Shown here in pieces: positions 29,320 through 42,850 of a DNA stretch of 61,200 nt. The notes under the pieces are model-generated. The model was not told the DNA's origin and did not search any database. It saw nothing but the letters and a program-made list of their open reading frames with translations. Within the stretch, counting starts at the first letter, position 1, and each line of letters begins with the position of its first letter. Made by a program: the position numbers and the translations under genes. The stretch spans positions 1-61,200 of the IMG/VR virus record IMGVR_UViG_3300023184_009672. One strand, written 5' to 3'. Source of the stretch: a virus (taxonomy: Duplodnaviria > Caudoviricetes).

Positions 29320-29394
29320 GTAAATTATTGAGTATTAAGGAGTTACATACGCGGCCTCCCTCGCGCCGCAAGTCGTTGATGGTCAAGGTGTTAT
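29320..29394 (+). repeat. 75-bp element A, copy 1
   Basis: 27+21+27 bp; core CCTCCCTCGC. Confidence 0.85.
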
Positions 29395-29499
29395 AGATGA
29401 GAATATATTTTTACGATTTCCTATAAAGCATTAGCAGGTAGTATCTTATGATAGTAAAAAAGTTCTTGTCACAGATTAAAAGTGTGGTATGATTACTAT

Positions 29500-30354
29500 A
29501 TGGCAAGAACAACTAAACCAAGCTCAAGTGAATATGATTTTGATATTCATCAAGAGCCACTCCTCACAACAGACGGCAAGAGGACAGGATACTTCGGAAT
29601 GGTGCGCCGTGACACCGCCGAACCCATAACACTCGGAGTTTGCACCGAGCAGTATGGTGTGGTGAAGAATGCAGACATGATCAGCATGGTGGAAGAATCG
29701 CTCACTAATCAAGGGCTTGGCGAGTATACTCGCAAGGCTATTGTGGTGCGTGATGGTGCTCGCTTTTATGCGAGCTATGACTTCCCTGAGTTCAAGACTG
29801 AGCTCAAGCCAGTTGGTAAGCGAGCAAAGGGTGATATCCTTGGTCTGCGCCTCACAGCTAACAACAGCTATGATCGCAGTTGCAGGGTATCGTTCTCGCT
29901 TGGGTTCATTCGTTTGGTTTGCACAAACGGAATGACCTCACTATCGAAGGAGTTCGGATTCACTAAGCGTCACACGCTTGCGGTGAATCTTGACTTCGTT
30001 GGTGACGCATTGAAGAATGCTCTCGCCAATGTCGATAAGAGCGCAAATGTGTTCAATCGTCTTGCTGAAAAGGCGATCACTGATGAGCAGGGTTTGACCT
30101 TGCTCACCAAGCTCGAAGAGAAGGATTACATCTCTGGCAAGGTGCGTGAAGGCATCGAAGCAGTTTGGCGTAATCCGTCCTACGAGTTGGACACTGATCG
30201 CAACTTGTACAACCTCTACAATGCCACTACGCAGTTCCTAACTCGTAATGTCGCTGAAGAGCGTTATGAGTATAGCGAGAGGGTTAGCCGTGACTTGCTG
30301 AAGGTATTCAGCGGAGCCACTCGTGACGAAGACTTGCTCAAGCTAGTCTCCTAA
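29500..30354 (+). CDS. DUF932 family protein
   Basis: Y.VVKN, NSYD, GFIRLVCTNGM, KRHT, LYNLYNATTQ; GC-richer than flanks; leaderless promoter. Confidence 0.85.
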   Translation: MARTTKPSSSEYDFDIHQEPLLTTDGKRTGYFGMVRRDTAEPITLGVCTEQYGVVKNADMISMVEESLTNQGLGEYTRKAIVVRDGARFYASYDFPEFKTELKPVGKRAKGDILGLRLTANNSYDRSCRVSFSLGFIRLVCTNGMTSLSKEFGFTKRHTLAVNLDFVGDALKNALANVDKSANVFNRLAEKAITDEQGLTLLTKLEEKDYISGKVREGIEAVWRNPSYELDTDRNLYNLYNATTQFLTRNVAEERYEYSERVSRDLLKVFSGATRDEDLLKLVS

Positions 30355-30373
30355 ACTAAAACGAAACTTTAAC

Positions 30374-30407
30374 AGAGTGCGAGGGTTAATCCCCTCGCAT
30401 TCTTTTT
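30374..30407 (+). terminator. Intrinsic terminator
   Basis: AGAGTGCGAGGG/CCCTCGCATTCT stem plus T tract. Confidence 0.85.
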
Positions 30408-30425
30408 GTCTAAATCTAATGAATT

Positions 30426-30500
30426 ATAAGTCCTTAACTATCAACGAGTTGCGTCGGCAGGGAGGTTGCGTTTGCAAGTCCTTGATATACAATGAGATAT
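30426..30500 (-). repeat. 75-bp element A, copy 2
   Basis: Core GCAGGGAGG on +; perfect WATCAANNNNTTR at 30439. Confidence 0.9.
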
Positions 30501-30539
30501 ATCGCTTGACTTTTTATTCTATTATGTTATAGTTATGAG

Positions 30540-30881
30540 ATGAAAGCAAAACATAAAGTATATTATAATCTACATAAAAAATGTTTGTCTATTATGCTTC
30601 GTGGAAAAGTATTAGAGCATAGCACAGAATTCTTTTTGAAAGATGTAGAATTTAGAGTGAGTCAAGCAGGGCGTTCCAGGGTTTTAAAAGAGCAAAGAAA
30701 GAATGTTCACGCTTTTGTATGTGGTACTCCAGATGATGGTTGGCCAGTAGATCAAGTAGAAAGAAAAGTTACCTATAATCCTTATAAGTATAATAGCTTT
30801 GTTTATGCTGATAACCTTGAGCCAGTATACAAAGCAAAGTGGGTTGGAGTAATTAATCGTGATATATTTGTCTTGAATTAA
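30540..30881 (+). CDS. Conserved phage hypothetical protein
   Basis: VYYNLHK...FRVSQAGR.RVLKE.RKNVHAFV...YNPYK. Confidence 0.75.
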   Translation: MKAKHKVYYNLHKKCLSIMLRGKVLEHSTEFFLKDVEFRVSQAGRSRVLKEQRKNVHAFVCGTPDDGWPVDQVERKVTYNPYKYNSFVYADNLEPVYKAKWVGVINRDIFVLN

Positions 30882-31051
30882 AAAGAAAGTATAGTATAAT
30901 CTTTAAATGGAAAAGATAACTAAAATCAAAAAACTCGCTGAAGGTGGCTATGCTATTTATAGCGTAGACCCCAAAACTAAAAGTGAAATGCAAGTTGGTT
31001 ATATTGGAGACAAACTCGACATCAAGGGTTGGCTTCCAGAAGGAGTAAAAA

Positions 31052-31703
31052 TTGAAAATTCTTGAAGATAATTTTAACAGCAAAGGATTTAATCTTTCCT
31101 TGCTCAAGCGAGAAGGAGATGTTGCAATCTATAAAAAGACATTAGAAGATTCTGAGTCAGGCGAAAGCAACTTTGAAGTAATCGCAATTAAGCGTCACAA
31201 TGGTTATGAGATTGCAGGAATCAAAATGCCTCCAGCAGAGATGTATCCTTCCAACACTCAATGGGGAGATTGGGCTTATACTTGTACTAGCAGAGAAGAT
31301 GCAGACAAGCGTTTCATTCAACTCACAGACAAACTAACAAACTACACCGCAACTTCTGTTCTAGCTAGTGGCGAGAAGCGTAAGCGTGGTCGTCCTCGGA
31401 AGAGCAATATTCTTCCAGCACCTCCAGCAGAAATTCACTTGACAGAAAATCAAATGGAGGTAGTATAAGGTTATGACATACAAATGTTCAGTAAGCGGTG
31501 AAGCAATTTCACCAGAGAGAGTCGAGGCTCTGAAAGTCCTTGGCGTTCCAGAAAGTAAATGGACAAACATCAAACATAGTCAAGTAAAGAAACTTAGGGG
31601 AGTATATGCTGGTGACGATGGCAGTAATGATATTGTTATCTGTGACGCAGTAGATGGTGGCTCATTATTTGACAATTCAGTTGTAGTCGAGGAGGTAGAA
31701 TGA
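31052..31703 (+). CDS. Two hypothetical ORFs (31052 with AT-hook-like KRGRPRK; 31473 with degenerate DksA-type finger motif)
   Basis: KRKRGRPRK; C..SGEAISPERVEAL. Confidence 0.55.
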
Positions 31704-31893
31704 AAGATAAATTTTATTCAGTTTATAGAGTAGATCATCGTGGAGACACAAATCCTTATGTTCGTGTGAGTGAATTCACTTACAAGAATGAAAATGATAG
31801 CTCAAAGGAAATTGCTTATTGGCAAGAAATCCTAAAGCGTTTCCCAGATGGTACAAAAGTTATCGTTAAGTAACTTCGGAGGCTGACACTAAT

Positions 31894-31984
31894 GCTAGAG
31901 TCGTCTAACTGGTTAAGACCCACGACTTATATTCGTGAAGCTCTAGATTTGAGCGCAATGTAGGTTCGAATCCTACCTCTAGTA
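31894..31984 (+). tRNA. tRNA with TAT anticodon (Ile) and long variable arm
   Basis: GCTAGAG/CTCTAGT acceptor, CACGA-CTTATAT-TCGTG anticodon arm, GCTC/GAGC variable arm, GTAGGTTCGAATCCTAC. Confidence 0.8.
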
Positions 31985-32008
31985 AGTTACTGATAGTCAA
32001 CGAGATTC
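31982..32008. repeat. Half copy of element A (single 27-bp quasi-palindrome)
   Basis: gtaagttactgatagtcaacgagatt overlapping the tRNA 3' end and preceding TTGACA(32014). Confidence 0.7.
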
Positions 32009-32047
32009 TTTTATTGACAAAAACTCAAGTTGTGGTATTCTTACATT

Positions 32048-32254
32048 ATGACAAAACAAAAAGCACCATTCTATGTGATGAATGTGTTCGGCCAAGACCG
32101 AGCCGTTATCCTAAACTCAGCAATCCGTATGTGTACGCCCAAGGAAACCTGCTCACTCAAAGACTTGGAGAATTATTCCAAGGCTTTTGCAGTAGAGTTT
32201 TTCCAAGTGCCGAAACCTTCTAGCTTTCCTTCTAAAGTGGGGCAAGTAGTTTAA
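32048..32254 (+). CDS. Hypothetical protein
   Basis: Leaderless promoter TTGACA(32014)-16-TATTCT. Confidence 0.55.
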   Translation: MTKQKAPFYVMNVFGQDRAVILNSAIRMCTPKETCSLKDLENYSKAFAVEFFQVPKPSSFPSKVGQVV

Positions 32255-32311
32255 AGGTGAAACAGAGAACTCATAATTCTCCTAGTGCTGGTTCGAGTCC
32301 AGCCTTGCCCA
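32240..32311 (+). tRNA. tRNA-CAT (elongator Met or Ile2)
   Basis: GGGCAAG/CTTGCCC acceptor, GAGAA-CTCATAA-TTCTC; lacks the initiator GGG/CCC anticodon stem. Confidence 0.85.
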
Positions 32312-32428
32312 CTCTGCTTACTTCTCCGTGTGCTGAATGGATGCTTAACTCTTATAGCAAACACGCAGAATTAACAGAACAAGACATCAAAGACTACTTT
32401 ACCAACAAAGAAAGGCTTGCACTAAAAA

Positions 32429-32500
32429 GGGTCGTTAACTCAATGGTAGAGTAGTTCCCTTTTAAGGAATTTGTTATAGGTTCAAGTCCTATACGACCCA
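32429..32500 (+). tRNA. tRNA-Lys(TTT)
   Basis: GGGTCGT/ACGACCC; GTTCC-CTTTTAA-GGAAT. Confidence 0.9.
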
Positions 32501-32543
32501 AAACAACTCTTGACAAACAACAAAGAAAGTATAATATAAAACT

Positions 32544-32930
32544 ATGACATTAATCAAACAAAATCTTGGAGCACAATGGGTTATTGGTATCAAAGGCAAA
32601 CCAGATAAAATTAAACAATATCACAACCGCATATATAATTGGGGTGGAACAAATGGTAATCTTAAATGGATGAGTAATAACTTTGCTTATTTTTGGATTA
32701 CAATGGAGAAACTAGAACGAGTTATGTTTAAGTATATGTCCAGCGGAATGACAAACAAACTTGGTAAAAGGTTTAGAGGTTCAAAGAGTGGATTCAAGAA
32801 TGTTATTCTTAACAGAGTTAAAAATACTATTAACAACATTAAAGTAGAAAACTTTTTAAGAACAGCACAAGAGCAAGACTTCTATTCTCTTGGCACAATC
32901 TCTGCTGAAAAATTAGATACGGATAGTTAA
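32544..32930 (+). CDS. Hypothetical protein, paralog of 41734-42153
   Basis: HNRIYNWGGTNG and FLRT...GTISAEK shared. Confidence 0.7.
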   Translation: MTLIKQNLGAQWVIGIKGKPDKIKQYHNRIYNWGGTNGNLKWMSNNFAYFWITMEKLERVMFKYMSSGMTNKLGKRFRGSKSGFKNVILNRVKNTINNIKVENFLRTAQEQDFYSLGTISAEKLDTDS

Positions 32931-32936
32931 TCTATT

Positions 32937-33009
32937 CGCCTAGTAGCCCAATGGCAGAGGCAAACGACTTAAAATCGTTCAAGTGTCAGTTCGAGTCTGA
33001 CTTAGGCGA
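32937..33009 (+). tRNA. tRNA-Leu(TAA), short variable loop
   Basis: CGCCTAG/TTAGGCG; AACGA-CTTAAAA-TCGTT; 5-nt variable loop. Confidence 0.85.
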
Positions 33010-33018
33010 AGTTTTATT

Positions 33019-33092
33019 GTTCCTATAACTCAATTGGATAGAGTAACAGATTTCTAATCTGTAAGTTGCAGGTTCGATCCCTGCTAGGAGCA
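33019..33092 (+). tRNA. tRNA-Arg(TCT)
   Basis: GTTCCTA/TAGGAGC; ACAGA-TTTCTAA-TCTGT. Confidence 0.9.
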
Positions 33093-33294
33093 AGTTTTAC
33101 GAATTATTTTCTCTAAATAATAATTAAGATGTAAGCCAGTATGTGAATAAGTTTTTTGTTAAATACTTTCCAGAATTTTTAATTTTAAGTATCATATTAG
33201 TAATTAGCTCAAGCGCAATAGAATCATTAATCAAAATAGTGATTGCACACATTAAATAATTTAGATAAACGCCAGTTATACATTATCATATATA

Positions 33295-33699
33295 ATGCAA
33301 GAACCAACTTCTGTAGAAGAACTAATAAAAAAGCATAGAGAAATTCCCGCTTATTCTGAAATAGATAATAAAATTTATATACAAGATTTTCATGGACTCA
33401 ATACCTTAAATAAGAAATATAACTTATTAAGCCACAATTATGAATTGCATAATTATTTTAGATCTTATGAATTGATAATGGAAAGCAGAAGTAATCCTGA
33501 AAAGATGAATGAACTATTAGGGTCTATAGATATGAGTTCTATGGAAAGTGTTTTGAAATTTCAAGAAAGCCTAACCTCTTATGATAAATACATTAGTTTA
33601 ATTAAAGTACATATCAAGAAAGAAAATTTACCAGAAGAGTTTAAAAATAAAAGTATTATACTTGTGCATGCTGGTAAAATGCATCATATTTGTAATTAA
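33295..33699 (+). CDS. Hypothetical protein
   Basis: 134-aa ORF. Confidence 0.55.
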   Translation: MQEPTSVEELIKKHREIPAYSEIDNKIYIQDFHGLNTLNKKYNLLSHNYELHNYFRSYELIMESRSNPEKMNELLGSIDMSSMESVLKFQESLTSYDKYISLIKVHIKKENLPEEFKNKSIILVHAGKMHHICN

Positions 33700-33970
33700 G
33701 TAAGATACATTACACATATAAAAAAATTTTACTCAAATATCTAATAGGATTACATAAATACTTGAATTATAATATAATATATTGTAATATATAGTAGATA
33801 TGAAACACGAAAACAGAATAAGCAAAATATTAGAAAAGAAAATTTTAAAGGACGAAGATCCTAAACTTATATCTGAAATAGAAAGATACTTAGCTGGTTT
33901 AGAAATACATTATAGCAAATGGGCAAAAGCTCATCCTAATTGGAAAGAATCAGAAGAATAAACAACCCTC

Positions 33971-34045
33971 GTAAGTCCTTACCTATCAAGGATTTACAAA
34001 AGCAACCTCCCTCGCGCTGTAAGTCGTTGACCATCAACGAGATTT
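33971..34045 (+). repeat. 75-bp element A, copy 3
   Basis: gtaagtccttacctatcaaggatttac-aaaagcaacctccctcgcgct-gtaagtcgttgaccatcaacgagattt. Confidence 0.9.
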
Positions 34046-34093
34046 AACTAAAGATTTTTCTTGTGGAAAAACAAAGGTATGGTATATTTAAGT

Positions 34094-34360
34094 ATGAACA
34101 AAATCAAAATCGCAATCATATACGCAACCTCATATCTGAAACACTTCGTCCTTTTCCTCTTGGGGCAAAGGTATTTAATCGAATACAAACCTTATGGCGG
34201 TGAAGAAGCCTTCACTTACATTATCAGCAAGCCTAGCTCTTTTAAGGTGAGCAAAGCTGGCAACAAGCTCTTCACGAGTTTCTGCTTCTCTGGTCGTATG
34301 GATTCTGGCGTGAAGCAATTCCGCTATGATCGTATCGCTGGTGGTCTCTCGCCAGTCTAA
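34094..34360 (+). CDS. Hypothetical protein (weak WYL-like end, QFRYDRI)
   Basis: Leaderless promoter directly after element A. Confidence 0.6.
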   Translation: MNKIKIAIIYATSYLKHFVLFLLGQRYLIEYKPYGGEEAFTYIISKPSSFKVSKAGNKLFTSFCFSGRMDSGVKQFRYDRIAGGLSPV

Positions 34361-34410
34361 CAACAGAGAGATTAGGGGGTTATTATTAGCCTCCTAGTTT
34401 AACATATAGA

Positions 34411-34440
34411 AAGGGCGAGGAGAAATCCTCGCCTTTTTTA
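34411..34440 (+). terminator. Intrinsic terminator
   Basis: GGCGAGGA-GAAA-TCCTCGCC plus TTTTT. Confidence 0.9.
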
Positions 34441-34490
34441 TTTGACTTATAGTTTAGTTATGGTACTATACAGATAGTTCTTTTCTATTA

Positions 34491-34645
34491 TTCGATGGAT
34501 CGGCGTGGTAGCTGTGAGTTTGCAATAACAACTCAGTAGAAACTGGAGACACGCAACAGAAACAACTTTAGGAGACTATCATCCAAAGATTTCTGTCTGA
34601 GCCGAAAGGCGTAGACGAGTTGGGGTAGCGTCCAACACCATCGAG
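34491..34645 (+). ncRNA. Expanded tRNA-like non-coding RNA
   Basis: TCGATGG/CCATCGA closing stem, GCGTG/CACGC, ACAGAAA/TTTCTGT, GCC-GAAA-GGC, GTTGG/CCAAC arms; promoter TTGACT(34442). Confidence 0.6.
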
Positions 34646-34651
34646 TATAGT

Positions 34652-34849
34652 TTATATTTTATTGCGCCACTTGTCTCTGTGGAAACAAACCCAACTTAAT
34701 AAAGCTTTTTCAAAACCAATATCATGTCCTGCTTTTTCACTTTCAATCCATTTGTGCTTTAAGATTTCTTCTCTTTCGCTCAAGAAGTTTTTATATAATA
34801 ATGAATGACTTAATATACGATCCATATCTTGTTTAATATTATCACTCAT
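34652..34849 (-). CDS. Small DUF4032-related protein
   Basis: EREEILKHKWIESEKAGHDIGFEKAL..W; GTGTAA motif upstream on - strand. Confidence 0.75.
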   Translation of the reverse strand: MSDNIKQDMDRILSHSLLYKNFLSEREEILKHKWIESEKAGHDIGFEKALLSWVCFHRDKWRNKI

Positions 34850-34892
34850 ATAATAAACTGCAAACTATATTACACAAAGTTTTTTATAGTAT

Positions 34893-34967
34893 GTAAGTTA
34901 TTCATCATTAACGAGTTACGCAAGCAACCTCCCTGCAGTTGCAAGTCCTTGATGGTCAATGAGATTT
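34893..34967 (+). repeat. 75-bp element A, copy 4
   Basis: 27+21+27; core CCTCCCTGC. Confidence 0.9.
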
Positions 34968-35016
34968 AAATTGAATATTATTTTGACATAAAGTAAATTT
35001 CTGATATATTTAAGCT

Positions 35017-35847
35017 ATGAAAGTAAACGAAATTATCACAGAAAAGTTTATCGAAGCCCTCAACAAAGGCGTATGCCCTTGGCAGAAACCTTGGAAAGTA
35101 TTTGAGATTTGTAATGGCGTTTCAAAGAAGAATTATAGAGGCATCAATCAATTTTTGCTTCGGATGGTTTCCTCTGACGATTTCTTTTTTACATTTAATC
35201 AAATCAAGGAACTAGGTGGCAGGATTAAAACTGGCGCTAAGGCTCACATGGTAGTCTATTACAAACTATTAAAGACAGAAGCTAAGAATGAATTGACCAG
35301 AACTTTCCCGATGATGAGATATTATAAAGTTTTCGGGTTGAGCGATGTCGAGGGAATCAAATGGAAGCAACCAGAGACTCCTAAGTTAGAATTTTCGCCA
35401 ATAGAAGAAGCAGAGAAGTTGATTAACAAGTGTGTGATTCAGATTAAGTATGGTGGTAGTCGTGCCTGTTACTATCCACAAGATCACAAGATTGATTTGC
35501 CTCTCAAAGAAAACTTCAACAGCGTTGAGGAGTACTACTCCACAGCATTTCACGAGATTGGTCACGCTATGCATAAAAGCACAAGTGACGATATCAAAAA
35601 TGGTTTCGGTTCTCAGAATTATAGCAAAGAAGAATTGACCGCAGAGATTTTTGCTAGCCTCTGTCTTAACTTCTGCGGAATTGATTCTGAAAAATGTTTC
35701 AACAATTCTGCCAGCTATCTCTCCAACTGGCTGGGAGTATTAAAGAAAGACATGAACTTTATTATCTCAGCTTCTAGCAAAGCACAAAAAAGATTTGATG
35801 CTTTCCTCGATAAAAAAGATAACGAAGAATTACATATGAATTATTAA
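35017..35847 (+). CDS. ardC: ArdC-like antirestriction/ssDNA-binding protein (DUF1738 + zincin domain)
   Basis: PWQKPW, YRGIN, TFNQ...GGRI..G, YYSTAFHEIGH, FGS..YSKEELTAE, SASYLSNW. Confidence 0.9.
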   Translation: MKVNEIITEKFIEALNKGVCPWQKPWKVFEICNGVSKKNYRGINQFLLRMVSSDDFFFTFNQIKELGGRIKTGAKAHMVVYYKLLKTEAKNELTRTFPMMRYYKVFGLSDVEGIKWKQPETPKLEFSPIEEAEKLINKCVIQIKYGGSRACYYPQDHKIDLPLKENFNSVEEYYSTAFHEIGHAMHKSTSDDIKNGFGSQNYSKEELTAEIFASLCLNFCGIDSEKCFNNSASYLSNWLGVLKKDMNFIISASSKAQKRFDAFLDKKDNEELHMNY

Positions 35848-35852
35848 GAGTT

Positions 35853-35927
35853 GCAAGTGCTTAAGTATTAAAGACTTACGCAAGCTGGGTCCCTGTGGTT
35901 GCAAGTCGTTGACTATCAGCGAGATTT
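35853..35927 (+). repeat. 75-bp element A, copy 5
   Basis: 27+21+27; core TCCCTG. Confidence 0.85.
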
Positions 35928-35975
35928 AAATGGTAAAAAAACTTGTATCAAACTTAATTTATGTTAAACTTTCTT

Positions 35976-36611
35976 ATGTTCAAAAACAAAAAACAAGCAG
36001 AAGAGATTGTCGGAACACTCTCAAAACCTTCGAAGATGCCAGGATTTGCGTATTCAACACCAGCAAAGCGTTGTCAGATTGGTATGAAAATGCGTGGAGT
36101 TGTTGGCAGTATGTGTGCGTTTTGCTATGCGTTGAAAGGGCGTTATGTTTTCCCTAATGTTGTGAAAGCTATGGAACGGCGTTTTGCTTCACTTACTCAC
36201 GATCTTTGGGTGGAAGCTATGACATATCTTATCGGAAAGGTTAAGAATCCTTATTTTCGCTGGCACGATTCAGGAGACATCCAAGGCGTTTGGCATCTTC
36301 AAAAGATTGTGCAAGTCGCTAAAAACTTACCTAATGTTAATTTTTGGCTACCCACGAGAGAATACTCCTATGTTTCATCTTATATATCAGAGGGTGGAGA
36401 AGTGCCTAGCAATCTTACCATTCGCCTCTCTGCTCTGATGATGGATGGAGTTGCACCCGTTGGAATTGCTCAACGCCTTAACTTATGCGTAAGTGGTGCG
36501 AGCAAGTTAGGTAATTTTAATTGTCCTAGCTCTAAGCAAGGGAACAAGTGTGGAGATTGTCGCAAGTGTTGGGATAAAAATGAGTTTGCAATTAACTACA
36601 AAAAGCATTAA
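35976..36611 (+). CDS. Gp88-like Cys-rich phage protein
   Basis: SKMPG, C...C..CYA, FRWHDSGD, FWLPTRE, NLTIRLS, CP...CGDCRKCW. Confidence 0.75.
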   Translation: MFKNKKQAEEIVGTLSKPSKMPGFAYSTPAKRCQIGMKMRGVVGSMCAFCYALKGRYVFPNVVKAMERRFASLTHDLWVEAMTYLIGKVKNPYFRWHDSGDIQGVWHLQKIVQVAKNLPNVNFWLPTREYSYVSSYISEGGEVPSNLTIRLSALMMDGVAPVGIAQRLNLCVSGASKLGNFNCPSSKQGNKCGDCRKCWDKNEFAINYKKH

Positions 36612-36851
36612 GATGTACCAATGGACATTATTCTTCCGATTGTTTTATTCTTAATTATTATTATATTTATTAAAGGATTACAAAAATGAAAATTGAAAAC
36701 ATATTAAAAGAAAACTTAGAATCTTTTTATCCTTGGAGCGATAACGACACTCCTCCACTCGATACCAATAAGAAAACTTTTGTAGAAAAAGAAAAAGAAA
36801 CTTTAGAAGATTTCGAGGGTTGGCGAGCTTGTATGTAAAAAACTTGTTGTT

Positions 36852-36926
36852 GTAAGTCGTTGACCATTAACGATTTACAGCCGCAGGGAGGTTGGATCTG
36901 TAAGTCGTTGATACTCAGCAACTTAG
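36852..36926 (-). repeat. 75-bp element A, copy 6 (at the convergence point of transcription)
   Basis: Core GCAGGGAGG on +. Confidence 0.9.
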
Positions 36927-37021
36927 CGACGCTCTATCATTGACCTAATCAAAGCATAAATTAATTGCACAAAAACCAAACCAAGATAAGCGTATAGGCA
37001 CATTAAAAATGTTTGCATATT

Positions 37022-37306
37022 TTATTCTCCACAAATTGCTGAATCGCCAAAGTAACCATAGTCTTCATCTGTGCCCCAGCCAGCAGAAGCCATAGCTGAA
37101 TCGTGGTCGCCATCCATCGACTCATCAGGCCTATCATCAGGTTCAGAAGAACCAATGATAAGAGGATCACTTTGCTCAGAGTCAGAACGATGCACGATAT
37201 TGTTGGCCATATTCTCCTCACGAATACCTTTCAAGATATCACGCACATCTAGCACACCCAGACCATTCTGGCTCATCCATTCCTTGAGAGAAGCTTTGTA
37301 GTCCAT
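37022..37306 (-). CDS. Acidic hypothetical protein (SAGWGTDEDYG motif)
   Basis: ATG 37306 directly after the upstream ORF stop. Confidence 0.65.
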   Translation of the reverse strand: MDYKASLKEWMSQNGLGVLDVRDILKGIREENMANNIVHRSDSEQSDPLIIGSSEPDDRPDESMDGDHDSAMASAGWGTDEDYGYFGDSAICGE

Positions 37307-37307
37307 A

Positions 37308-37472
37308 TTAGACAACCTCCACAAGAGTTTCGGAATTAGAATAAGTTCCATTCAACGCATCCAGCATAGCGTTGATTTCAGTATTGGAGTTGAGGTAGTC
37401 GAAGAACGCATTTGCGTCAGCATAAACTTCCTCGCAGGTTTCCGTCGCTAGGGATGTAATTTCGTTTCTCAT
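37308..37472 (-). CDS. 54-aa acidic hypothetical protein
   Basis: Hand-translated MRNEITSLATETCEEVY...; leaderless promoter TTGTTC..TGATATATT. Confidence 0.6.
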   Translation of the reverse strand: MRNEITSLATETCEEVYADANAFFDYLNSNTEINAMLDALNGTYSNSETLVEVV

Positions 37473-37580
37473 ACTTAGAATATATCACAGATTAGATTTA
37501 GAACAAGGTTTATTTTCATAAAAAGCAGATAGAAGAATCTCTAATAGTAAATAGGAAATAGTCTAATAACAAATAGCCCC

Positions 37581-37698
37581 GATCTTTCTGCTTCATTCAG
37601 TTTTTGCTCTAAAATCAGTTCGTGTAAGTCGTTGATGGTCAAGCACTTGCGCGCCCACCCTCCCTGCGCTTGTAAGTCGTTGATACTCAGGCTCTTAC
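37581..37698. repeat. 36-bp repeat B (37581-37616) plus element A copy 7 (37624-37698)
   Basis: gatctttctgcttcattcagtttttgctctaaaatc followed by 27+21+27 element. Confidence 0.9.
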
Positions 37699-37978
37699 AA
37701 GAGGTCTCTGAGATTCAAACAACTCGCAGAAAGATAGTAGAAAAATCTTTCACGCAAAAAGTTTTTCCTCTCACCATTTTTCACGGCAAGTCTATAAGTT
37801 TTTTTGTTTAATTTAAAAAGTATATTTTTCATTTAACTCTCGCCCATATCGCGCATATGGTCAGAATCAAGTTCTGCTTGAGTTTCTAAAGCTCGCTCCA
37901 TAGCTTGATCATCCAACATTTTTTTTGCCCATATGTTTAATGTTTTTTGGTCATCGAATATATCATACATCATTTTAT

Positions 37979-38257
37979 TTAGTCTCCTTTGTAGTCTGAA
38001 GTTGCGTTGAAGTCTCCGATGAAACTCATCGTGCCGTTTTTGCGTTCTTCACATTCTTTAAGAAGAGCAGGAGTCATTTCGACTTCGGTCACTTCATCGT
38101 AAAAAGCTATTACGCTTCCAACTCCAGAGATTCTGGAAAGGCATTTTTTGTTAGAGGTTGAATTGAGCATTTCGCAGATTGCGATATGGTTTTTGATTTG
38201 GTAGTATTTTCCTACTACGAGGGATTCGATTGTGTTTTTCATTTCTTTATCTTTCAT
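37979..38257 (-). CDS. Hypothetical protein
   Basis: Leaderless promoter TTGCAA..TGATAAACT. Confidence 0.6.
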   Translation of the reverse strand: MKDKEMKNTIESLVVGKYYQIKNHIAICEMLNSTSNKKCLSRISGVGSVIAFYDEVTEVEMTPALLKECEERKNGTMSFIGDFNATSDYKGD

Positions 38258-38313
38258 ACTATTTAGTTTATCACAGATTGAGTTTTTTGCAAGGTATTTC
38301 TTTGAGTTAAATC

Positions 38314-38544
38314 TCATTGAGCATCAACGGGATACAAACCCTTACGCATATAAATGGTTGTCCATTTACCTTTATCCTCGCCTTCGAGGATTTCAGCAGT
38401 TGCAGTTTTTGTTTTCCAACCAATAGTGGAAGGGAAAAGTTTCACGAGTAATTTCTCGTGGCCATATCTGTATATGTTTTTATTTTCGTATAGTTCAGGA
38501 TTTATTTGTATATTCATTTTATTTATTCTTTCTTTCGTTTTCAT
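38314..38544 (-). CDS. Hypothetical protein, paralog of 39289-39561
   Basis: LVK...TATAEILEGEDKGK. Confidence 0.6.
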   Translation of the reverse strand: MKTKERINKMNIQINPELYENKNIYRYGHEKLLVKLFPSTIGWKTKTATAEILEGEDKGKWTTIYMRKGLYPVDAQ

Positions 38545-38608
38545 TTCTTATCTTGTTATAAGTATAGTTTAGCATATTCCAGAGAAAACGCAACAAAAAT
38601 CTTCATTT

Positions 38609-38843
38609 AAATTTCATTGATGGACAACGAGTTACAGCCGCAGGGAGGTTGGTGCCGTAAGTCGTTGACTTATAACAATTTAGAGTTTATGCGTTCATTC
38701 AGTTTTTGTCTCAAGATCAGTTCTGATCTTTCGCTTTCAGTCATGTTTTGTCATAAGATCGAACATCTATAAGTCTTTGACTATTAAGAACTTACACAAG
38801 AGCCCTCCCTGCGCTTGTAAGTTGTTGATGGGTAAGCACTTAT
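38609..38843. repeat. 235-bp composite A-B-B-A (A copies 8 and 9 inverted; B at 38683 and 38725)
   Basis: Same geometry as 41096-41330. Confidence 0.92.
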
Positions 38844-38945
38844 AATTGGTCAAAAAAGACAAAAAAAATCTGTGAAGTTTTTTTCACAGATTCTTGCACC
38901 GAATCTTTATGCAAAAGGTTTTAGCTTTCGCGGTTTTTCTACATT

Positions 38946-39152
38946 TTATTTAGCCTTTGGACCCCAACGCTTTTTAGCAAGTGCTAACTGTTTATCAAGT
39001 TTCGCTAAGGCTTTAGCCTTAACATAGTCTGGATTTTGAAGTTTCCAATCAGCCCAACTCTTTTTGAGTCTAGACCACTTTTGGTTATTATTTTCCCAAC
39101 GCTGTAATTCCCATTCTTGGGAAGTTTGTTTTTTATTCATTTCATTATTCAT
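38946..39152 (-). CDS. Hypothetical protein
   Basis: 68-aa ORF; hairpin AATCTGTGAA/TTCACAGATT downstream. Confidence 0.55.
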   Translation of the reverse strand: MNNEMNKKQTSQEWELQRWENNNQKWSRLKKSWADWKLQNPDYVKAKALAKLDKQLALAKKRWGPKAK

Positions 39153-39288
39153 TTTATTTACTTTCTGGATACAAGGTCAACCGCAATGCGATTAATTCAA
39201 TTAGAATCCGTTTTTCGTTTTGAAGGTTAAGAATCAAGATTTCATTTTTGATTCGTTTAATTTCTTTTTTTAGTTGATGTTGATTCAT

Positions 39289-39561
39289 TTATTTATTTTC
39301 CTTTACTAGTTTAGCATTGTTAAGGTTGATAGTTCCAACCTTATCTTTATCTATACCTTCAAGGAAGGTTACAACCGCAGTATTTGCAGAAGTTTTATAA
39401 GAAACTTTTACTAAAGTTCCTTCGTAAAGGTATATTTCACCAAAGTATGTTGGTGTATTGTTAGAGTTAGTTATGATGGATTCAGTACTATCCATATTTT
39501 TTCGCATATTTTCACGCATTTGTCTGCGGTGAAAATTCCAATTTATCATTCTATGAGTCAT
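39289..39561 (-). CDS. Hypothetical protein, paralog of 38314-38544
   Basis: LVK...TAVVTFLEGIDKDK. Confidence 0.6.
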   Translation of the reverse strand: MTHRMINWNFHRRQMRENMRKNMDSTESIITNSNNTPTYFGEIYLYEGTLVKVSYKTSANTAVVTFLEGIDKDKVGTINLNNAKLVKENK

Positions 39562-39610
39562 TTTATTTATTTTCTTTCTTTGTTATTTCTTATCTTGTTA
39601 TAGTTATAGT

Positions 39611-39823
39611 TTAGCATATTTCAGCCGAATTGCAAGCGATTTCTTCAATTTGTTTTTCGTTGACCATCATACAGTTATGATGAGCGAGTGAAACTTTTTG
39701 TTGATATTTCTCAAAAATTTGGTCAATTCTTTTTGCAGTTTCTTCATTTGCTTTTTTCATATCAGCGGAGACTTTTTCAAGGTTTGCGATTAGGATTTCA
39801 TACTTGGTTAATTTCTTATTCAT
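39611..39823 (-). CDS. Coiled-coil hypothetical protein, paralog of 42205-42378
   Basis: KLTKYEILIANLEK; leaderless promoter after element A. Confidence 0.65.
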   Translation of the reverse strand: MNKKLTKYEILIANLEKVSADMKKANEETAKRIDQIFEKYQQKVSLAHHNCMMVNEKQIEEIACNSAEIC

Positions 39824-39872
39824 AGATACAGTTTAGCATATTTCAGAAGAAATGCAACATATTTCTTCATTT

Positions 39873-39982
39873 AAATCTCGTTCACCATCAACGAGTTACA
39901 GCTGCAGGGAGGTCGCTTTTGTAAGTCGTTAATGATTAAGGATTTAGGTTTTTTGCTTTTATTCAGTTTGTGCCGTAAGATC
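39873..39982. repeat. Element A copy 10 (39873-39947) plus repeat B (39947-39982)
   Basis: B abuts the 3' end of tRNA-Thr. Confidence 0.9.
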
Positions 39983-40054
39983 AGCCAGAAATCGGATTCG
40001 AACCGATGACCTACGGTTTACAAAACCGTTGCACTACCGCTGTGCTATTCTGGC
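39983..40054 (-). tRNA. tRNA-Thr(TGT)
   Basis: Reverse complement GCCAGAA/TTCTGGC; ACGGT-TTTGTAA-ACCGT; GGTTCGAATCC. Confidence 0.92.
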
Positions 40055-40065
40055 AAAATTATATT

Positions 40066-40305
40066 TTAATTATTGGTGTGATAATCGTAACCACCAGCCT
40101 TGTAAAGCCACCAAACGAAAGTATTTTCTTCGTAAGGATTGTTGAACTTTTCCCATCCTTCATCATTGAATCCATCATTGTAAGCTTTGAATTCAGAAAG
40201 ATCCCATTTCTTTGATTCTCCAAATTGCATCCATTCTTTTTGGTTCATTATTTTATTTATTTCATTTTCCAAGGTTTCAACATCTGAATTGATTTCTAAT
40301 TTCAT
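40066..40305 (-). CDS. Hypothetical protein
   Basis: Leaderless promoter TTGCGA..TGATAGAAT. Confidence 0.65.
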   Translation of the reverse strand: MKLEINSDVETLENEINKIMNQKEWMQFGESKKWDLSEFKAYNDGFNDEGWEKFNNPYEENTFVWWLYKAGGYDYHTNN

Positions 40306-40354
40306 GTTTTTATTCTATCATATTTTTAACTTATCGCAAGATATTTCTTCATTT

Positions 40355-40429
40355 AAATCTCGTTCACCATCAACGAGTTACAGCCGCAGGGAGGTCGCTT
40401 TTGTAAGTCGTTGTGTTAGAACAACTTAC
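40355..40429 (-). repeat. 75-bp element A, copy 11
   Basis: 40341-40412 nearly identical to 39859-39930. Confidence 0.92.
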
Positions 40430-40441
40430 ATCAGCTTATTT

Positions 40442-40819
40442 TTAGAACGCTGTAAAAGTCATTTGCGTAGATTCATCTAAAGTATTTTGAGAAGGCTTAA
40501 AGAAGATAACTTGGTTATTTATTTTATCTATTGAAACTCCTTTTGGCAAAGATGAGAAGTTTCCTTCGTCATCCGTTCCGATGACCAAAGCTTTTCCAGC
40601 AAAAGGTTGAGAGTGAAGCCCAAACTTAAAGTAAGCTTGAGATTCTTTGTCTTTCAACAAACCTTCGTCATCTAAAACCATATCAATTCCATCTTGTAGA
40701 TTTGTTATGGTAATTATATTACAACCTAGCAAAGAATAGATTGTTTGAAGTTTAGTATCTACTAAAGTGACATTTAGTATAGTTTCGGTGAATGGGTCAA
40801 TGAGGATTGCTTTGATCAT
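40442..40819 (-). CDS. DUF3846-like protein
   Basis: IKAILIDP...LDDEGLLK...FAGKALVIGTDDEG. Confidence 0.7.
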   Translation of the reverse strand: MIKAILIDPFTETILNVTLVDTKLQTIYSLLGCNIITITNLQDGIDMVLDDEGLLKDKESQAYFKFGLHSQPFAGKALVIGTDDEGNFSSLPKGVSIDKINNQVIFFKPSQNTLDESTQMTFTAF

Positions 40820-40836
40820 ATTTTTATTTTCTTTCT

Positions 40837-41046
40837 TTATTTGTAGGTTACGAAGTTTTGATTTTCTTTTCTCAGTTCGATTGTTGGAGGCATATCTGCC
40901 ATAGGTGCACCATTTACAACACCATTCAGAATCTCAAGAGTTTGGTGAGTTTGTTTTCCCATTGTATAGATGAGAAAAAACCCATAGGCAAAAAGCCCAA
41001 GGATAAAGATTCCGTGCATTGTTTTTTCAGTTATTGTTTTATTCAT
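40837..41046 (-). CDS. Small membrane protein
   Basis: Single TM segment; leaderless promoter after element A. Confidence 0.6.
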   Translation of the reverse strand: MNKTITEKTMHGIFILGLFAYGFFLIYTMGKQTHQTLEILNGVVNGAPMADMPPTIELRKENQNFVTYK

Positions 41047-41095
41047 AGATTTATTCTATCACATTTTAGGATTATCACAAGATATTTTTACATTT

Positions 41096-41330
41096 AAATT
41101 TCATTGACCATCAACAAGTTGCAGCTGCAGGGAGGAGGCTTATATAAGTAGTTGATATATAGAGACTTAGATTATATGCGTTCATTCATGTTTTGTCCTA
41201 AGATCGTTTTCGATCTTTTGCCTTTCATCAGTTTTGTCGCTAAGATCGAGCATGCCTAAGTCGTTAGCTATTAGGCACTTACGGAAGCGCCCTCCCTGCA
41301 TGCGTAAGTCCTTGATAGGCAGGCACTTAC
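41096..41330. repeat. 235-bp composite A-B-B-A (A copies 12 and 13 inverted; B at 41170 and 41212)
   Basis: Same geometry as 38609-38843. Confidence 0.92.
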
Positions 41331-41351
41331 ATGCAGTAGGCTAGCTTATCG

Positions 41352-41729
41352 CTACAGCTTGTAGAACTTATGGTGCTGTATGACTGCTACCAGCTTAGTG
41401 TCCTTAGCCCACTTAGGCGAGACGCTCACAGCGTGGTAGTGATTAGCACCCTTGACGATGTCGGGCATCTGCTTGTGCAGTACAAGGTCAGCAAGATACA
41501 GAGCATCCTTGCCTTGTCTAGTAGCTAGTAGCTTACGCTTGGATGACTCACTCACCTTACCATTCCAGAAGCTGAACTGCTTAGGTGATAGGCACACCTG
41601 CATAGGTGTCTGCTTGCGCTGTATGGTGCGTGTCTGTATGACACTAGCAACACCAGCCATACCCTCGAAGCCCTCGCCTCTCGCCTCGCCTAGTAAGGTC
41701 AACGCTATGATGAGTAGTTCAGCGGTCAT
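41352..41729 (-). CDS. SleB/Hydrolase_2 cell wall hydrolase
   Basis: GEARGE...VASVI..R, QFSFWN, GANHYH, PKWA, HKFY. Confidence 0.88.
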   Translation of the reverse strand: MTAELLIIALTLLGEARGEGFEGMAGVASVIQTRTIQRKQTPMQVCLSPKQFSFWNGKVSESSKRKLLATRQGKDALYLADLVLHKQMPDIVKGANHYHAVSVSPKWAKDTKLVAVIQHHKFYKL

Positions 41730-41733
41730 ACTA

Positions 41734-42153
41734 TTACTCTCTCCCACTACTTACTGCACCGCAGTAATCAGAAGGTTTCTCTGCTGTGATCGTGCCGAAT
41801 CCGTAGGTATCGTTAGAGACAGAGGTACGAAGGAATCGCCCATCAATGATGTTGTCGAATTGACCTTGTGCCTTGATCTTCGCAAGGCTCATCAATCCAC
41901 CCTTCATTCCCTTTGCGTTTATCTTGTTGCATAGGGAGTGTAGAGCAATCTTGACGAGAGCGTGTAAGACTGCATCGGGTTGAGCGTAGAAGTAAAACGC
42001 TTTGCCGTTGCCCATATCGTGCAACTGCCCATTAGTCGCACCCCAGTTGTATAGGGCATTGTGGAATGAGGTAATGCGACCCTTGCCACCTTCCAAGAGG
42101 AAAGCAGTCGTTTCGCCGAATGATTGTTTGGTGATGTTTAGTTGGTTTTTCAT
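41734..42153 (-). CDS. Hypothetical protein, paralog of 32544-32930
   Basis: HNALYNWGATNG; GC-rich; leaderless promoter TTGACG..TAATAT. Confidence 0.7.
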   Translation of the reverse strand: MKNQLNITKQSFGETTAFLLEGGKGRITSFHNALYNWGATNGQLHDMGNGKAFYFYAQPDAVLHALVKIALHSLCNKINAKGMKGGLMSLAKIKAQGQFDNIIDGRFLRTSVSNDTYGFGTITAEKPSDYCGAVSSGRE

Positions 42154-42204
42154 AGTGTGTATATTATCCTTTTCGATTGGTTTCGTCAATGGTTATTTTC
42201 TGAG

Positions 42205-42378
42205 TTACTCGCAAGCGTGGCTGAGATCGCTAGGCTCATAGATTTTCAGCATCTCCTCACGCTTCGAAGAATACGCTTCAGAGACTTTTAGGAAAGACTC
42301 ACAAGCCTTAGCGTGATTCGCAGAGGCTTTTTCGAGGTTAGCGAGGAGGGTTTCGAACTTACTTAATTTATTTTTCAT
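42205..42378 (-). CDS. 57-aa hypothetical protein
   Basis: Hand-translated MKNKLSKFETLLANLEKASANHAK...; leaderless promoter. Confidence 0.65.
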   Translation of the reverse strand: MKNKLSKFETLLANLEKASANHAKACESFLKVSEAYSSKREEMLKIYEPSDLSHACE

Positions 42379-42427
42379 ACAAGTAGTCTATCATATTAGA
42401 GAAAAAAAACAACATATTTCTTCATTT

Positions 42428-42634
42428 AAATTTCACTGACCATCAACGAGTTACGACGCAAGGGAGGGCTCTCTCCTAAGTCTTTGATAGTCAAGCGTGT
42501 GATCTTTTGCTTTCATTCAGGTTTTGTCGCAAGATCGATTACGATCTTTAGCCTTCCTTCATGTTTTGTCCTAAGATCGACACAGAATAGCTTATTGATT
42601 ATCAATGACTTGCGTAACAACCCCCCTATTTTTG
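42428..42634. repeat. Truncated composite: A copy 14, B at 42501 and 42543, half A at 42587
   Basis: Same spacing as the other composites; last palindrome missing. Confidence 0.88.
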
Positions 42635-42850
42635 AAAAAAACTGACTGAAGCTAATGCTAAATGGTGCGAGGGGGTATCAACATCATTCTCCCCATAACA
42701 ATAAAAGTATTATTATATATAGGTTATACTCTACCTTTATTTTAAAATCATTTTAAAACAACTATAAGCTAGAATCTTTTCAAATTAAAAAAATCCACGG
42801 GGCTATTTATTTATATAACCCTTTTTATATATATTAAAAAACATACTATA

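Follow-up and report, generated by a model that had tools for sequence, protein, structure and literature searches.

Composite promoter and stem-loop motifs, the PeSLs, lie in the hyperplastic regions of T4-type phages and mediate modular shuffling there, according to the two papers that describe them (Arbiol et al. 2010, PMC2839356; Comeau et al. 2014, PMC4122927). The element considered here is a 75-bp repeat found in a 61,200-nucleotide stretch of viral DNA (Duplodnaviria; Caudoviricetes; IMG/VR record IMGVR_UViG_3300023184_009672, positions 1 to 61,200; the window, by which the whole stretch is meant), and a preliminary description of the window had likened it to the PeSLs. The comparison is apt with regard to promoter, location and joints: as in the PeSLs, a composite motif of about 100 bp is repeated through a hyperplastic early region, carries a sigma-70-type promoter with an AT-rich upstream tract, flanks small accessory genes and ORFans, and is the place within which indels and replacements are joined. 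However, the 75-bp module consists of two 27-bp palindromes and a GC-rich core without hairpin selection, its terminators stand separately, and most of its genes are predicted to be leaderless, whereas the PeSLs end in a Shine-Dalgarno sequence. Furthermore, the module phage is not T4-type, and the palindrome occurs in bacterial chromosomes too.

Two other systems share parts of this design. Sites for integration host factor (IHF) are found before phage early promoters and in repeats, as at Mu Pe, lambda pL and the E. coli RIP/BIME-1 elements. The module resembles these in that its inner half-sites carry the letters of the IHF consensus WATCAANNNNTTR, in its place upstream of promoters and in its combination of repeated extragenic palindromes with a site like that of a bending protein; it differs in that the 'N' positions are conserved, the sites are doubled into palindromes and the intact palindrome is essentially missing from sampled Pseudomonadota. 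In RIP elements an IHF site lies between two REP palindromes, a layout opposite to that of the phage module. The res/six sites of the serine recombinases Sin and beta comprise two dimer-sized palindromic subsites and an architectural spacer within approximately 75-90 bp. Geometry and length are similar here, and outcomes of both resolution and inversion are seen, but the phage has no serine or tyrosine recombinase gene, and its modules are promoter-fused and present in many copies per genome. A literature search, with subscription journals outside its coverage, returned no description of the module, the PeSL papers alone being relevant.

The explanation that we favour, with a confidence slightly above even, is that the 75-bp unit is a double-stranded nucleoprotein boundary module that lies upstream of promoters and doubles as a recombination joint. 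Its two 27-bp palindromes would dock a sequence-specific, probably dimeric, DNA-binding or DNA-bending protein, with the GC-rich spacer between them. This binder is somewhat more probably a host factor than a phage-encoded protein, and would be of the kind that binds the same palindrome before promoters in some Verrucomicrobiota rather than classical IHF. With its centre at about -64 or -54 (a gap of 15 or 5 nt), the promoter-side palindrome would set the activity or timing of an immediate-early gene, whichever the direction of the effect, and stand-alone copies would follow the terminator of the previous cassette and delimit the units. Conserved over 75-130 bp and present in both orientations, the module would also be a preferred substrate of phage homologous recombination, which may delete, insert, move and flip cassettes and cores.

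The geometry of the element is rigid. In every full copy two 27-bp quasi-palindromes are separated by a 21-bp spacer, and the window holds 14 such copies, without gaps and at the positions given in the preliminary description. All 14 full and two partial copies lie within 29.3-42.6 kb. A profile built from the 14 copies and run on the 61,200-base record returned exactly those 14 places, further matches being the reverse-strand echoes of the same copies that are expected with palindromes; confinement to a 13-kb region, as first described, stands. CCTCCCT/AGGGAGG occurs 13 times in the window, each time within a module core, and the core of the 14th copy (35853) reads GGGTCCCT instead. The two halves reported earlier are also real, 31982 being a solo palindrome after a tRNA and 42587 a first palindrome with a partial core. 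The copies are intergenic, as had been claimed, relative to open reading frames (ORFs) with family matches or conserved relatives; several ORFs of 44-97 aa overlap module copies and are probably spurious. The reported agreement in orientation between copy and promoter holds, with eight copies at 15 nt from their promoter, 29320 at 71 nt and 30426 as the exception. The copies are as follows.

29320 to 29394, plus strand: module copy 1, stand-alone; core CCTCCCT on the plus strand; 64.6 bits; next promoter 71 nt downstream, at 29466-29493.
30426 to 30500, minus strand: module copy 2, core inverted; the promoter-side arm keeps its GAGATAT ending.
Promoter of copy 2, plus strand: 5-nt gap to TTGACT at 30506; leaderless ORF from 30540.
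31982 to 32008, no strand assigned: solo palindrome directly after a tRNA, with the promoter-type ending GAGATTC; 5-nt gap to TTGACA at 32014.
33971 to 34045, plus strand: module copy 3, promoter-fused; -35 at 34061-34066, -10 at 34083-34088, ATG at 34094.
34893 to 34967, plus strand: module copy 4, with divergent promoters on both sides.
34983-34988 and 35005-35010, plus strand: plus-side promoter of copy 4, leading to an ArdC-like gene, ATG at 35017.
34877-34872 and 34855-34850, minus strand: minus-side promoter of copy 4, leading to the gene 34849-34652.
35853 to 35927, plus strand: module copy 5, core GGGTCCCT, promoter-fused; -35 at 35943-35948, -10 at 35965-35970, ATG at 35976 of a GP88-family gene.
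36852 to 36926, minus strand: module copy 6, stand-alone between convergent cassettes; core opposite at the same site in relatives.
37624 to 37698, plus strand: module copy 7, stand-alone, with an M motif on one side and on the other a conserved hairpin (37730-37752 region) at the end of the upstream minus-strand gene.
38609 to 38683, minus strand: module copy 8, promoter-fused; -35 at 38593-38588, -10 at 38571-38566, ATG at 38544.
38769 to 38843, plus strand: module copy 9, stand-alone and paired with copy 8 in inverted orientation; the intrinsic terminator 38895-38864 precedes it on the minus strand.
39873 to 39947, minus strand: module copy 10, promoter-fused (39857-39852, 39835-39830, ATG at 39823); tRNA-Thr at 39983-40054 just upstream.
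40355 to 40429, minus strand: module copy 11, promoter-fused (40339-40334, 40317-40312, ATG at 40305); it lies within a 1.4-kb stretch absent from the relative G001 and from a DNA contig of run X3.
41096 to 41170, minus strand: module copy 12, promoter-fused (41080-41075, 41058-41053, ATG at 41046).
41256 to 41330, plus strand: module copy 13, stand-alone, inverted partner of copy 12.
42428 to 42502, minus strand: module copy 14, promoter-fused (42412-42407, 42390-42385, ATG at 42378).
42587 to 42627, plus strand: partial module with the first palindrome and a degenerate core, the second palindrome missing; profile score 14.6 at about 42590-42627.

The module is also a family trait. An exact-pattern scan of viral contigs found 59 loci on 34 contigs and, at a profile score of at least 35 bits, 153 copies were recovered: the 14 in the window and 139 on 33 other viral contigs. 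Of these copies 119 are distinct, and all but one of the distinct copies (118/119) align without gaps. The centres of adjoining palindromes are separated by 48 bp in 68 of 74 cases; three others are separated by 49 bp and three by 111-112 bp, the last class being the inner distance of inverted module pairs. Confinement to one region is seen again in the relative G001, where all copies fall within 124.7-136.4 kb of 171.9 kb. Ten columns are invariant among the 119 distinct copies, and the best-conserved parts are the two half-sites facing the core, chiefly GTAAGTCGTTGAT to its right. Conservation of the core itself is limited to (CC/GG)TCCCT(G/T)(C/G), so that the 'specific core two helical turns wide' of the preliminary description is not supported: only TCCCTGC is kept here, and the cores of sister lineages differ in sequence and length. 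The module is a real and strongly constrained cis-element of the lineage as a whole.

The palindrome alone is more widespread, being found in at least 153 further viral stretches. Among 80 loci examined for partner spacing, the partner palindrome lies at 50 bp in 32, 48 bp in ten, 58 bp in nine, 51 bp in eight and 41-42 bp in five, with rarer distances of 34-35 bp (three), 60 bp (two) and 52 or 53 bp (one each); 19 have no partner within 60 bp. This spacing is nearly uniform within a contig and differs between genomes. Cores of at least 14 nt have a GC fraction of 0.52-1.0, mostly 0.65 or more, and GC-richness is shared by nearly all lineages. Four contigs represent distant relatives of the phage group, with 24-51% protein identity, in which palindrome arrays are kept with other core lengths and in the same position, between the clamp-loader side and the PhoH-sigma-terminase genes. 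Since relatives so far diverged keep their palindrome arrays in place, the palindrome has outlasted most of the protein sequence; the spacer has not.

Coupling of the module to early promoters, which the preliminary description had put forward, takes the form of a physical fusion at a fixed gap; a regulatory effect of this fusion is what we infer from it. With copies oriented by their cores, a promoter of the form TTGnnn-16-TAnnnT lies on the second-palindrome side in 55 of 117 copies, and its TTG begins on the 16th base after the module in 53 of these 55. In such copies the outer arm of the second palindrome reads GA(G/A)ATTT and is followed by an AT-rich stretch and then the promoter; in a second class the palindrome ends in letters of the CTTAC type, and 55 of 57 members are without such a promoter. 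The side is strongly biased (54/115 copies on the second-palindrome side, 6/115 on the other). Of 42 strong promoters, 33 lie at a gap of 15 nt and seven at a gap of 5 nt. Orthologous ArdC sites differ in this respect, the window having the 15-nt gap and five relatives the 5-nt one. In the window, eight copies have a promoter at 15 nt, and the 5-nt gap is found at copy 30426 and also at the solo palindrome 31982; about half of all copies are promoterless. A universal helical register between palindrome and promoter was considered and rejected, the commonest gaps in three distant lineages being 30, 20 and 28-29 nt.

The start codon is drawn into the same unit. An ATG follows the -10 by 5-6 nt in 36 of the 55 promoter-bearing copies, and because it sits so close in most cassettes, most of the module-promoter genes should be leaderless. 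Predicted leaderless starts are at 29500, 30540, 34094, 35017, 35976, 39823, 40305, 41046 and 42378; other genes of the window carry the usual Shine-Dalgarno sequence, as at about 36680 and 55655. Contigs of three RNA libraries end in adaptor at 34109-34119, 15-25 nt past the predicted start at 34094, which is only a weak hint in its favour.

Along the direction of transcription, a typical junction between cassettes consists of a gene, a terminator hairpin, a stand-alone module, a second repeat (M) that is single or double, a promoter-fused module, an AT-rich tract, a promoter and a start codon. The 285-bp units at 38558-38842 and 41045-41329 fit this plan, and 42320-42626 is a truncated version of it. 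The module itself is not the terminator, since a canonical terminator stands separately beside copy 2. The further features of these junctions are listed here.

30374 to 30403, plus strand: intrinsic terminator, a 12-bp stem followed by TTTT, between the DUF932 gene and copy 2.
38895 to 38864, minus strand: intrinsic terminator beside copy 9.
38684 to 38768, minus strand: two tandem M motifs (GATCTTAGGACAAAACnTGAATGAAnGC type) between the inverted copies 8 and 9; the second ends in a -10-like hexamer abutting the module.
41171 to 41255, minus strand: M motifs between copies 12 and 13, including AGGACA-17-TATAAT (41199-41171) pointing into copy 12.
42503 to 42586, minus strand: two M motifs between copy 14 and the partial copy.

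The M repeat has the form GATCTT..GACAAAACnTGAATGAA..GC..GATC, always adjoins the first-palindrome side of the module and is often found in tandem, with a short GATC hairpin separating the tandem copies (M positions: 37592-37608, 38694-38752, 41181-41197, 42512-42570 and 42634-42650). Some M copies are promoter-like, AGGACA-17-TATAAT being directed into the module.

The identity of a possible binder was approached through the IHF matches and through bacterial genomes. Strict matches to WATCAANNNNTTR were recovered at the positions reported earlier; the window holds 15, of which nine lie in full copies and one in a half, a window-wide count not above chance (10.5 +/- 3.2 in shuffles). At no more than one mismatch, the inner half-sites match in 91/118 copies (right arm of the first palindrome) and 103/118 (left arm of the second), and the outer half-sites in 53/118 and 9/118. 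In IHF sites the spacer letters are free, specificity being limited to the consensus and an upstream A/T tract. The four 'N' letters of the module (positions 53-56), however, carry 1.3-1.95 bits, equal to the consensus letters. Together with the absence of a phage gene for HU or IHF (PF00216 was not found in G000-G003) and the occurrence of the palindrome in 1/251 Pseudomonadota as against several Verrucomicrobiota, this speaks against classical IHF as the binder.

The full module is no repeat of bacteria: among 185,579 bacterial species genomes it gave 28 pattern matches, of which two are real and the rest chance partial matches. Single palindromes were scanned at up to three mismatches, with a reversed-pattern control that gave 0 throughout. 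They were found in 5/401 sampled Verrucomicrobiota, the seed metagenome-assembled genome (MAG) included, in 0/301 sampled Bacteroidota and in 1/251 sampled Pseudomonadota, as one site with three mismatches. Within the order of one verrucomicrobial genome, G112, four of 151 genomes are positive, with ten, five, two and one sites. The ten sites of G112 are dispersed and intergenic, on eight contigs, in DNA of 45-60% G+C, and neighbour housekeeping and polysaccharide genes (ArgRS, LpxD-like, glycosyltransferase, pyruvyl-transferase, acyltransferase and others). In nine of the ten, ACAGCATT-N4-AATGCTG follows within 7-15 nt, and then a -10-like TAtACT, which starts 25-26 nt after the palindrome at five sites and 32-34 nt at four; the phage values are 27 and 37 nt. 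The second motif, the inverted repeat CAGCATT-N4-AATGCTG, is not found in the phage. In G112 as in the phage a promoter-bearing repeat precedes unrelated genes, but the unit of the phage comes in doubled form around a GC core, with its copies arrayed in a single region. The promoter-region unit of G112 (L105-L114) itself resembles a regulon or a mobile promoter.

The simplest reading of these sites is that a cellular protein would recognise the palindrome near promoters and that the phage lineage would use that protein; the distribution of the palindrome between Verrucomicrobiota on the one hand and Bacteroidota and Pseudomonadota on the other favours a host factor over classical IHF. More tentatively, and as a possibility to which we give less than even weight, the 27-bp palindrome may be the operator of an undescribed promoter-upstream factor of some Verrucomicrobiota and presumably of the phage host, doubled and clamped with a GC-rich spacer by an entire lineage of large freshwater phages to give plug-and-play early-gene units of terminator, boundary module, promoter and leaderless gene. 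If so, each anti-defence cassette would be individually switched, insulated and exchangeable between phages by ordinary recombination. Searches for a phage protein that accompanies the palindrome gave little: PF25735 (gp82-like) and PF06067 (DUF932), which represent the two conserved genes of the array, are absent from G112, G466, G410, G430 and G056, with PF25735 negative in the control genomes as well; a tblastn comparison of every phage ORF with the palindrome loci of the bacteria returned a pilin-type N-terminus only; and a PDB sequence search and a protein atlas had nothing to add for the gp82-like protein.

These observations bear on the rival that survives best, a plain PeSL-type repeat without a binder, in which an inherited, gene-converted segment upstream of promoters merely provides homology for recombination. 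Promoter, AT-rich tract and start codon do travel together, cassette indels are joined at the repeats, the promoter gap varies between lineages, and neither a recombinase nor a binding protein has been identified, all of which such a repeat would explain. Yet homology for recombination requires none of the features that are conserved: a palindrome kept nearly letter for letter at 24-51% protein identity while the core is free in sequence and length, position-specific conservation with ten invariant columns in 119 distinct copies, and a 27-mer that recurs singly before promoter-like motifs in bacterial chromosomes. We therefore regard the plain repeat as unlikely.

Comparison of relatives supports the module as a place of exchange. 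Fixed cassette content, which would have spoken against shuffling, is not seen; content differs between relatives, with joints at modules. In crude gene-cluster maps of 30 regions the backbone is kept and cassettes are present, absent or moved between modules; cluster 25, for instance, lies between two modules beside the ArdC gene in three contigs and elsewhere in the window. Between copies 39873 and 41256 the window is longer than G001 by 1.4 kb. Cores are also inverted in place: the copy that separates the GP88-family gene from its neighbour is seen in relatives with the core in either orientation, its palindromes homologous and in place, and copy 30426 has an inverted core with arms that retain their promoter-side identity. 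Joints were read from Logan contigs of a further, independent lake DNA run and of RNA libraries at 90% likeness and show variants in relatives rather than events within one genome. One leads from 38303 to 38952, where a 37-nt solo palindrome replaces 648 bp (three runs), and others from 39913 to 41301 and from 38620 to 38807. Weaker ones lead from 34041 to 37623 and from 42401 back to 38604; the latter, of depth 13.4 with a 31-letter side and seen in contigs only, would fit a circle, comparable to the mini-circles of the PeSL system, or the gene order of a relative alike. Loose contig ends lie exactly at or inside copy 37624, and the joints as a whole are not at one fixed position within the module.

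Part of the shuffling proposed in the preliminary description is thereby upheld, namely cassette differences with joints at modules, whereas its active machinery is not, a recombinase not having been found. The Pfam scan of 150 of the 159 G001 ORFs of at least 90 aa found no integrase, resolvase or transposase, and six-frame searches for PF00239 (Resolvase) and PF00589 (Phage_integrase) were negative in all four records G000-G003, with control genomes positive. Recombination-type genes of G001 are RecA-like, endonuclease VII, PD-(D/E)XK, ERCC4 and RuvB-like. Since no recombinase was found in the phages, the module joints are more simply read as homologous exchange between repeats. A site-specific recombination site, res/six-like or attC-like, at which a dedicated enzyme excises, inverts and inserts cassettes, is improbable. 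It would account for the two palindromes of 12+3+12 bp, the rigid geometry and both orientations, with half-site and total lengths that resemble hix and res subsites, as well as for the core inversions at 30426 and, in relatives, at the 36852 site, for deletion joints inside cores and, if it is a circle rather than a rearranged relative, for the joint from 42401 to 38604. It has to contend with the missing Resolvase and Phage_integrase families, with the scatter of the joints and with the promoters that are welded, always equally far away, to half of the copies, a feature superfluous to a pure recombination site; a host enzyme might nevertheless act on the module.

The palindromes might instead be selected to fold, as RNA hairpins for termination, attenuation or processing, as a small RNA presenting CCUCCC, or as single-stranded DNA hairpins. 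Each pair of arms can indeed be folded on paper, and 44 of 118 cores have a minimum free energy of -5 kcal/mol or lower, some being able to form a GC hairpin of 5-8 bp. In sister lineages with a spacing of 58 or 60 bp the core is a real hairpin (GACCCC-TTCG-GGGGTC), M motifs direct promoter-like sites into some copies, and RNA-library contigs cover copies 36852 and 37624. Nevertheless, the alignment does not behave like that of a selected fold. Arms pair in 76.2% of cells against 75.2% with shuffled partners, an effect of one percentage point of a kind that, as the tool itself warns, related sequences can yield without structure. RNAalifold found no consensus structure in the module alignment; the 30 top mutual-information pairs are adjacent or near columns that mark subfamilies, none of them arm-to-arm partners; native arms have no folding advantage over combinations of arms from different copies (z = -1.15 and -0.71), and their stems are weak, with means of -4.3 and -4.7 kcal/mol. 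A long hairpin of the right arm of the first palindrome with the left arm of the second, together with a core hairpin, is paired at 75.0% against 76.3% in shuffles, so that compensatory covariation is absent from all three pairings tested. The core of the window family reaches -3.95 kcal/mol against -3.23 for shuffles, which is no better than shuffles, and a core hairpin common to all lineages was rejected, since only in the 58/60-bp lineage does the hairpin clearly exceed shuffles.

The stable stem-loop terminator of the PeSL thus appears to have no counterpart in the module, where arms are weak, covariation is lacking, the core folds like shuffles and terminators are separate. A structured nucleic acid is still more improbable than a dedicated recombination site, as its weak stems also lack a U-tract, canonical terminators stand beside the copies, Rfam matches in the array are limited to tRNAs, and cores that flip would demand a function independent of strand. 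From the lack of covariation, the weak stems and the separate canonical terminators we conclude that the palindromy of the module reflects half-site recognition of duplex DNA and not a selected fold. The arms were originally read as protein sites; that part stands, in so far as they behave as double-stranded recognition sites, and the assignment to IHF is not supported. The 58/60-bp sister lineage (L127, L158, L164, L176, L194, L199, L135, L155) carries TTCG/GAAG in its core loop, and its 60-bp members have a core stem that is longer on both sides together.

Finally, a mobile repeat of the MITE (miniature inverted-repeat transposable element) or REP type is very improbable: the element is short and non-coding, with a terminal-inverted-repeat layout, many copies, both orientations and single palindromes scattered in a few bacterial genomes, but its copies are syntenic in relatives, confined to one region of a complete 172-kb genome and fused to promoters at a fixed base distance, with no target duplications in the flanks of the 14 copies (by eye only) and no transposase in the 150 of 159 G001 ORFs scanned.

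Returning to the nucleoprotein boundary module, several observations weigh against it. The palindrome distances of different lineages (41-42, 48, 50-51, 53, 58 and 60 bp) lack a common helical phase, which speaks against a single complex formed cooperatively on two sites. The promoter gap is likewise lineage-specific (30, 20 or 28-29 nt in the three distant lineages), and its constancy in the window family could reflect descent of one 130-bp repeat, not selection. Contigs of the RNA libraries span copies 36852 and 37624 and the solo palindrome; if they represent RNA, the stand-alone copies are not strong blocks to transcription. Gaps in RNA-library coverage over some other copies carry no weight here, since absence is not something that contigs can demonstrate. 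Only 1/500 shuffles reach the observed arm pairing and 5/500 the covariation score, which leaves room for a very small structural signal in the arms. The core of the 58-bp lineage, a GC hairpin with a UUCG-type loop, folds at -13.7 against -7.3 kcal/mol for shuffles, and the modules of some lineages may have an RNA or terminator role that was lost in the window family. As for the binder, none was identified among the phage ORFs compared with the palindrome-bearing bacteria. These bacteria have 45-60% G+C around their sites, against 31% in the phage, so that they are not shown to be its hosts, and the two real bacterial modules lie on MAG contigs of 1.0-1.3 kb that are possibly mis-binned phage. 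Some of the joints, in turn, are anchored on one side by as little as 22-37 letters and may stem from relatives or from chimeric assembly.

If a host factor does dock at the modules, they would offer a handle on the activation of immediate-early anti-defence genes in a lineage of uncultured phages and on how accessory-gene islands stay modular. The palindrome would be a bait for the factor, the bacterial single sites could help in host prediction, and the same motif would link phage and bacterial promoters. The PeSL idea would then extend beyond T4-type phages, and to protein sites in place of a stem-loop. When phages of this lineage are annotated, the module can be relied on to mark cassette boundaries and predicted leaderless starts.

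The phage from which the window derives has a genome of about 170 kb, the record covering approximately 36% of it. The window, with a G+C content of 29-40%, encodes rIIA/rIIB, an ATP-dependent ligase, a clamp-loader-like ATPase, PhoH, a sigma factor, the large terminase and seven tRNAs. Despite rIIA/rIIB and the ligase, the phage is not T4-type, since its large terminase finds its best matches among siphovirus terminases, at only about 24-26% identity, and the lineage has a DnaE-type polymerase. Near and distant DNA searches of a cultured-phage collection gave no close relative, only tRNA similarity. G001 (171,916 bp, rated 100% complete) is collinear with the window, with 70-88% DNA identity over most of it, and the sequencing runs that contain the stretch are labelled lake or freshwater metagenomes. 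The source classes the record as 'provirus', a label that looks doubtful; the window has neither host flank nor integrase and is collinear with a lytic-looking phage of 172 kb.

Genes of the array include DUF932, gp82-like, ArdC, GP88, DUF3846 and cell-wall hydrolase genes and many ORFans. The gene at 29482-30354 has a DUF932 domain and that at 35017-35847 an ArdC N-terminal domain with a metallopeptidase; together with the DUF3846 gene of the array, these are typical of the leading regions of plasmids or integrative and conjugative elements and of anti-restriction, and array genes of this type are richer in G+C than the remainder of the phage. The array also contains, at 31893-33093, five tRNA genes (Ile-tat, Met, Lys, Leu and Arg), whereas tRNA-Thr (39983-40054) stands alone as a unit flanked by two modules, on the strand opposite to the group of five.

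The segment 34442-34650 is a candidate phage small RNA. A terminator at 34413-34439 is followed by a promoter, TTGACT-16-TACTAT (34442-34469), and by about 170 nt free of ORFs; RNA-library contigs reach a depth of about 1,900-2,070 here in one run and have adaptor-joined ends at 34640-34645. Its predicted fold has -54.3 kcal/mol (z = -3.69), and no Rfam family matches at threshold. At the far end of the window, a 99-bp tandem repeat (60879-61200; 3.3 copies, 96% matches) runs past the end of the record and probably lies within a structural gene, its period being a multiple of three.

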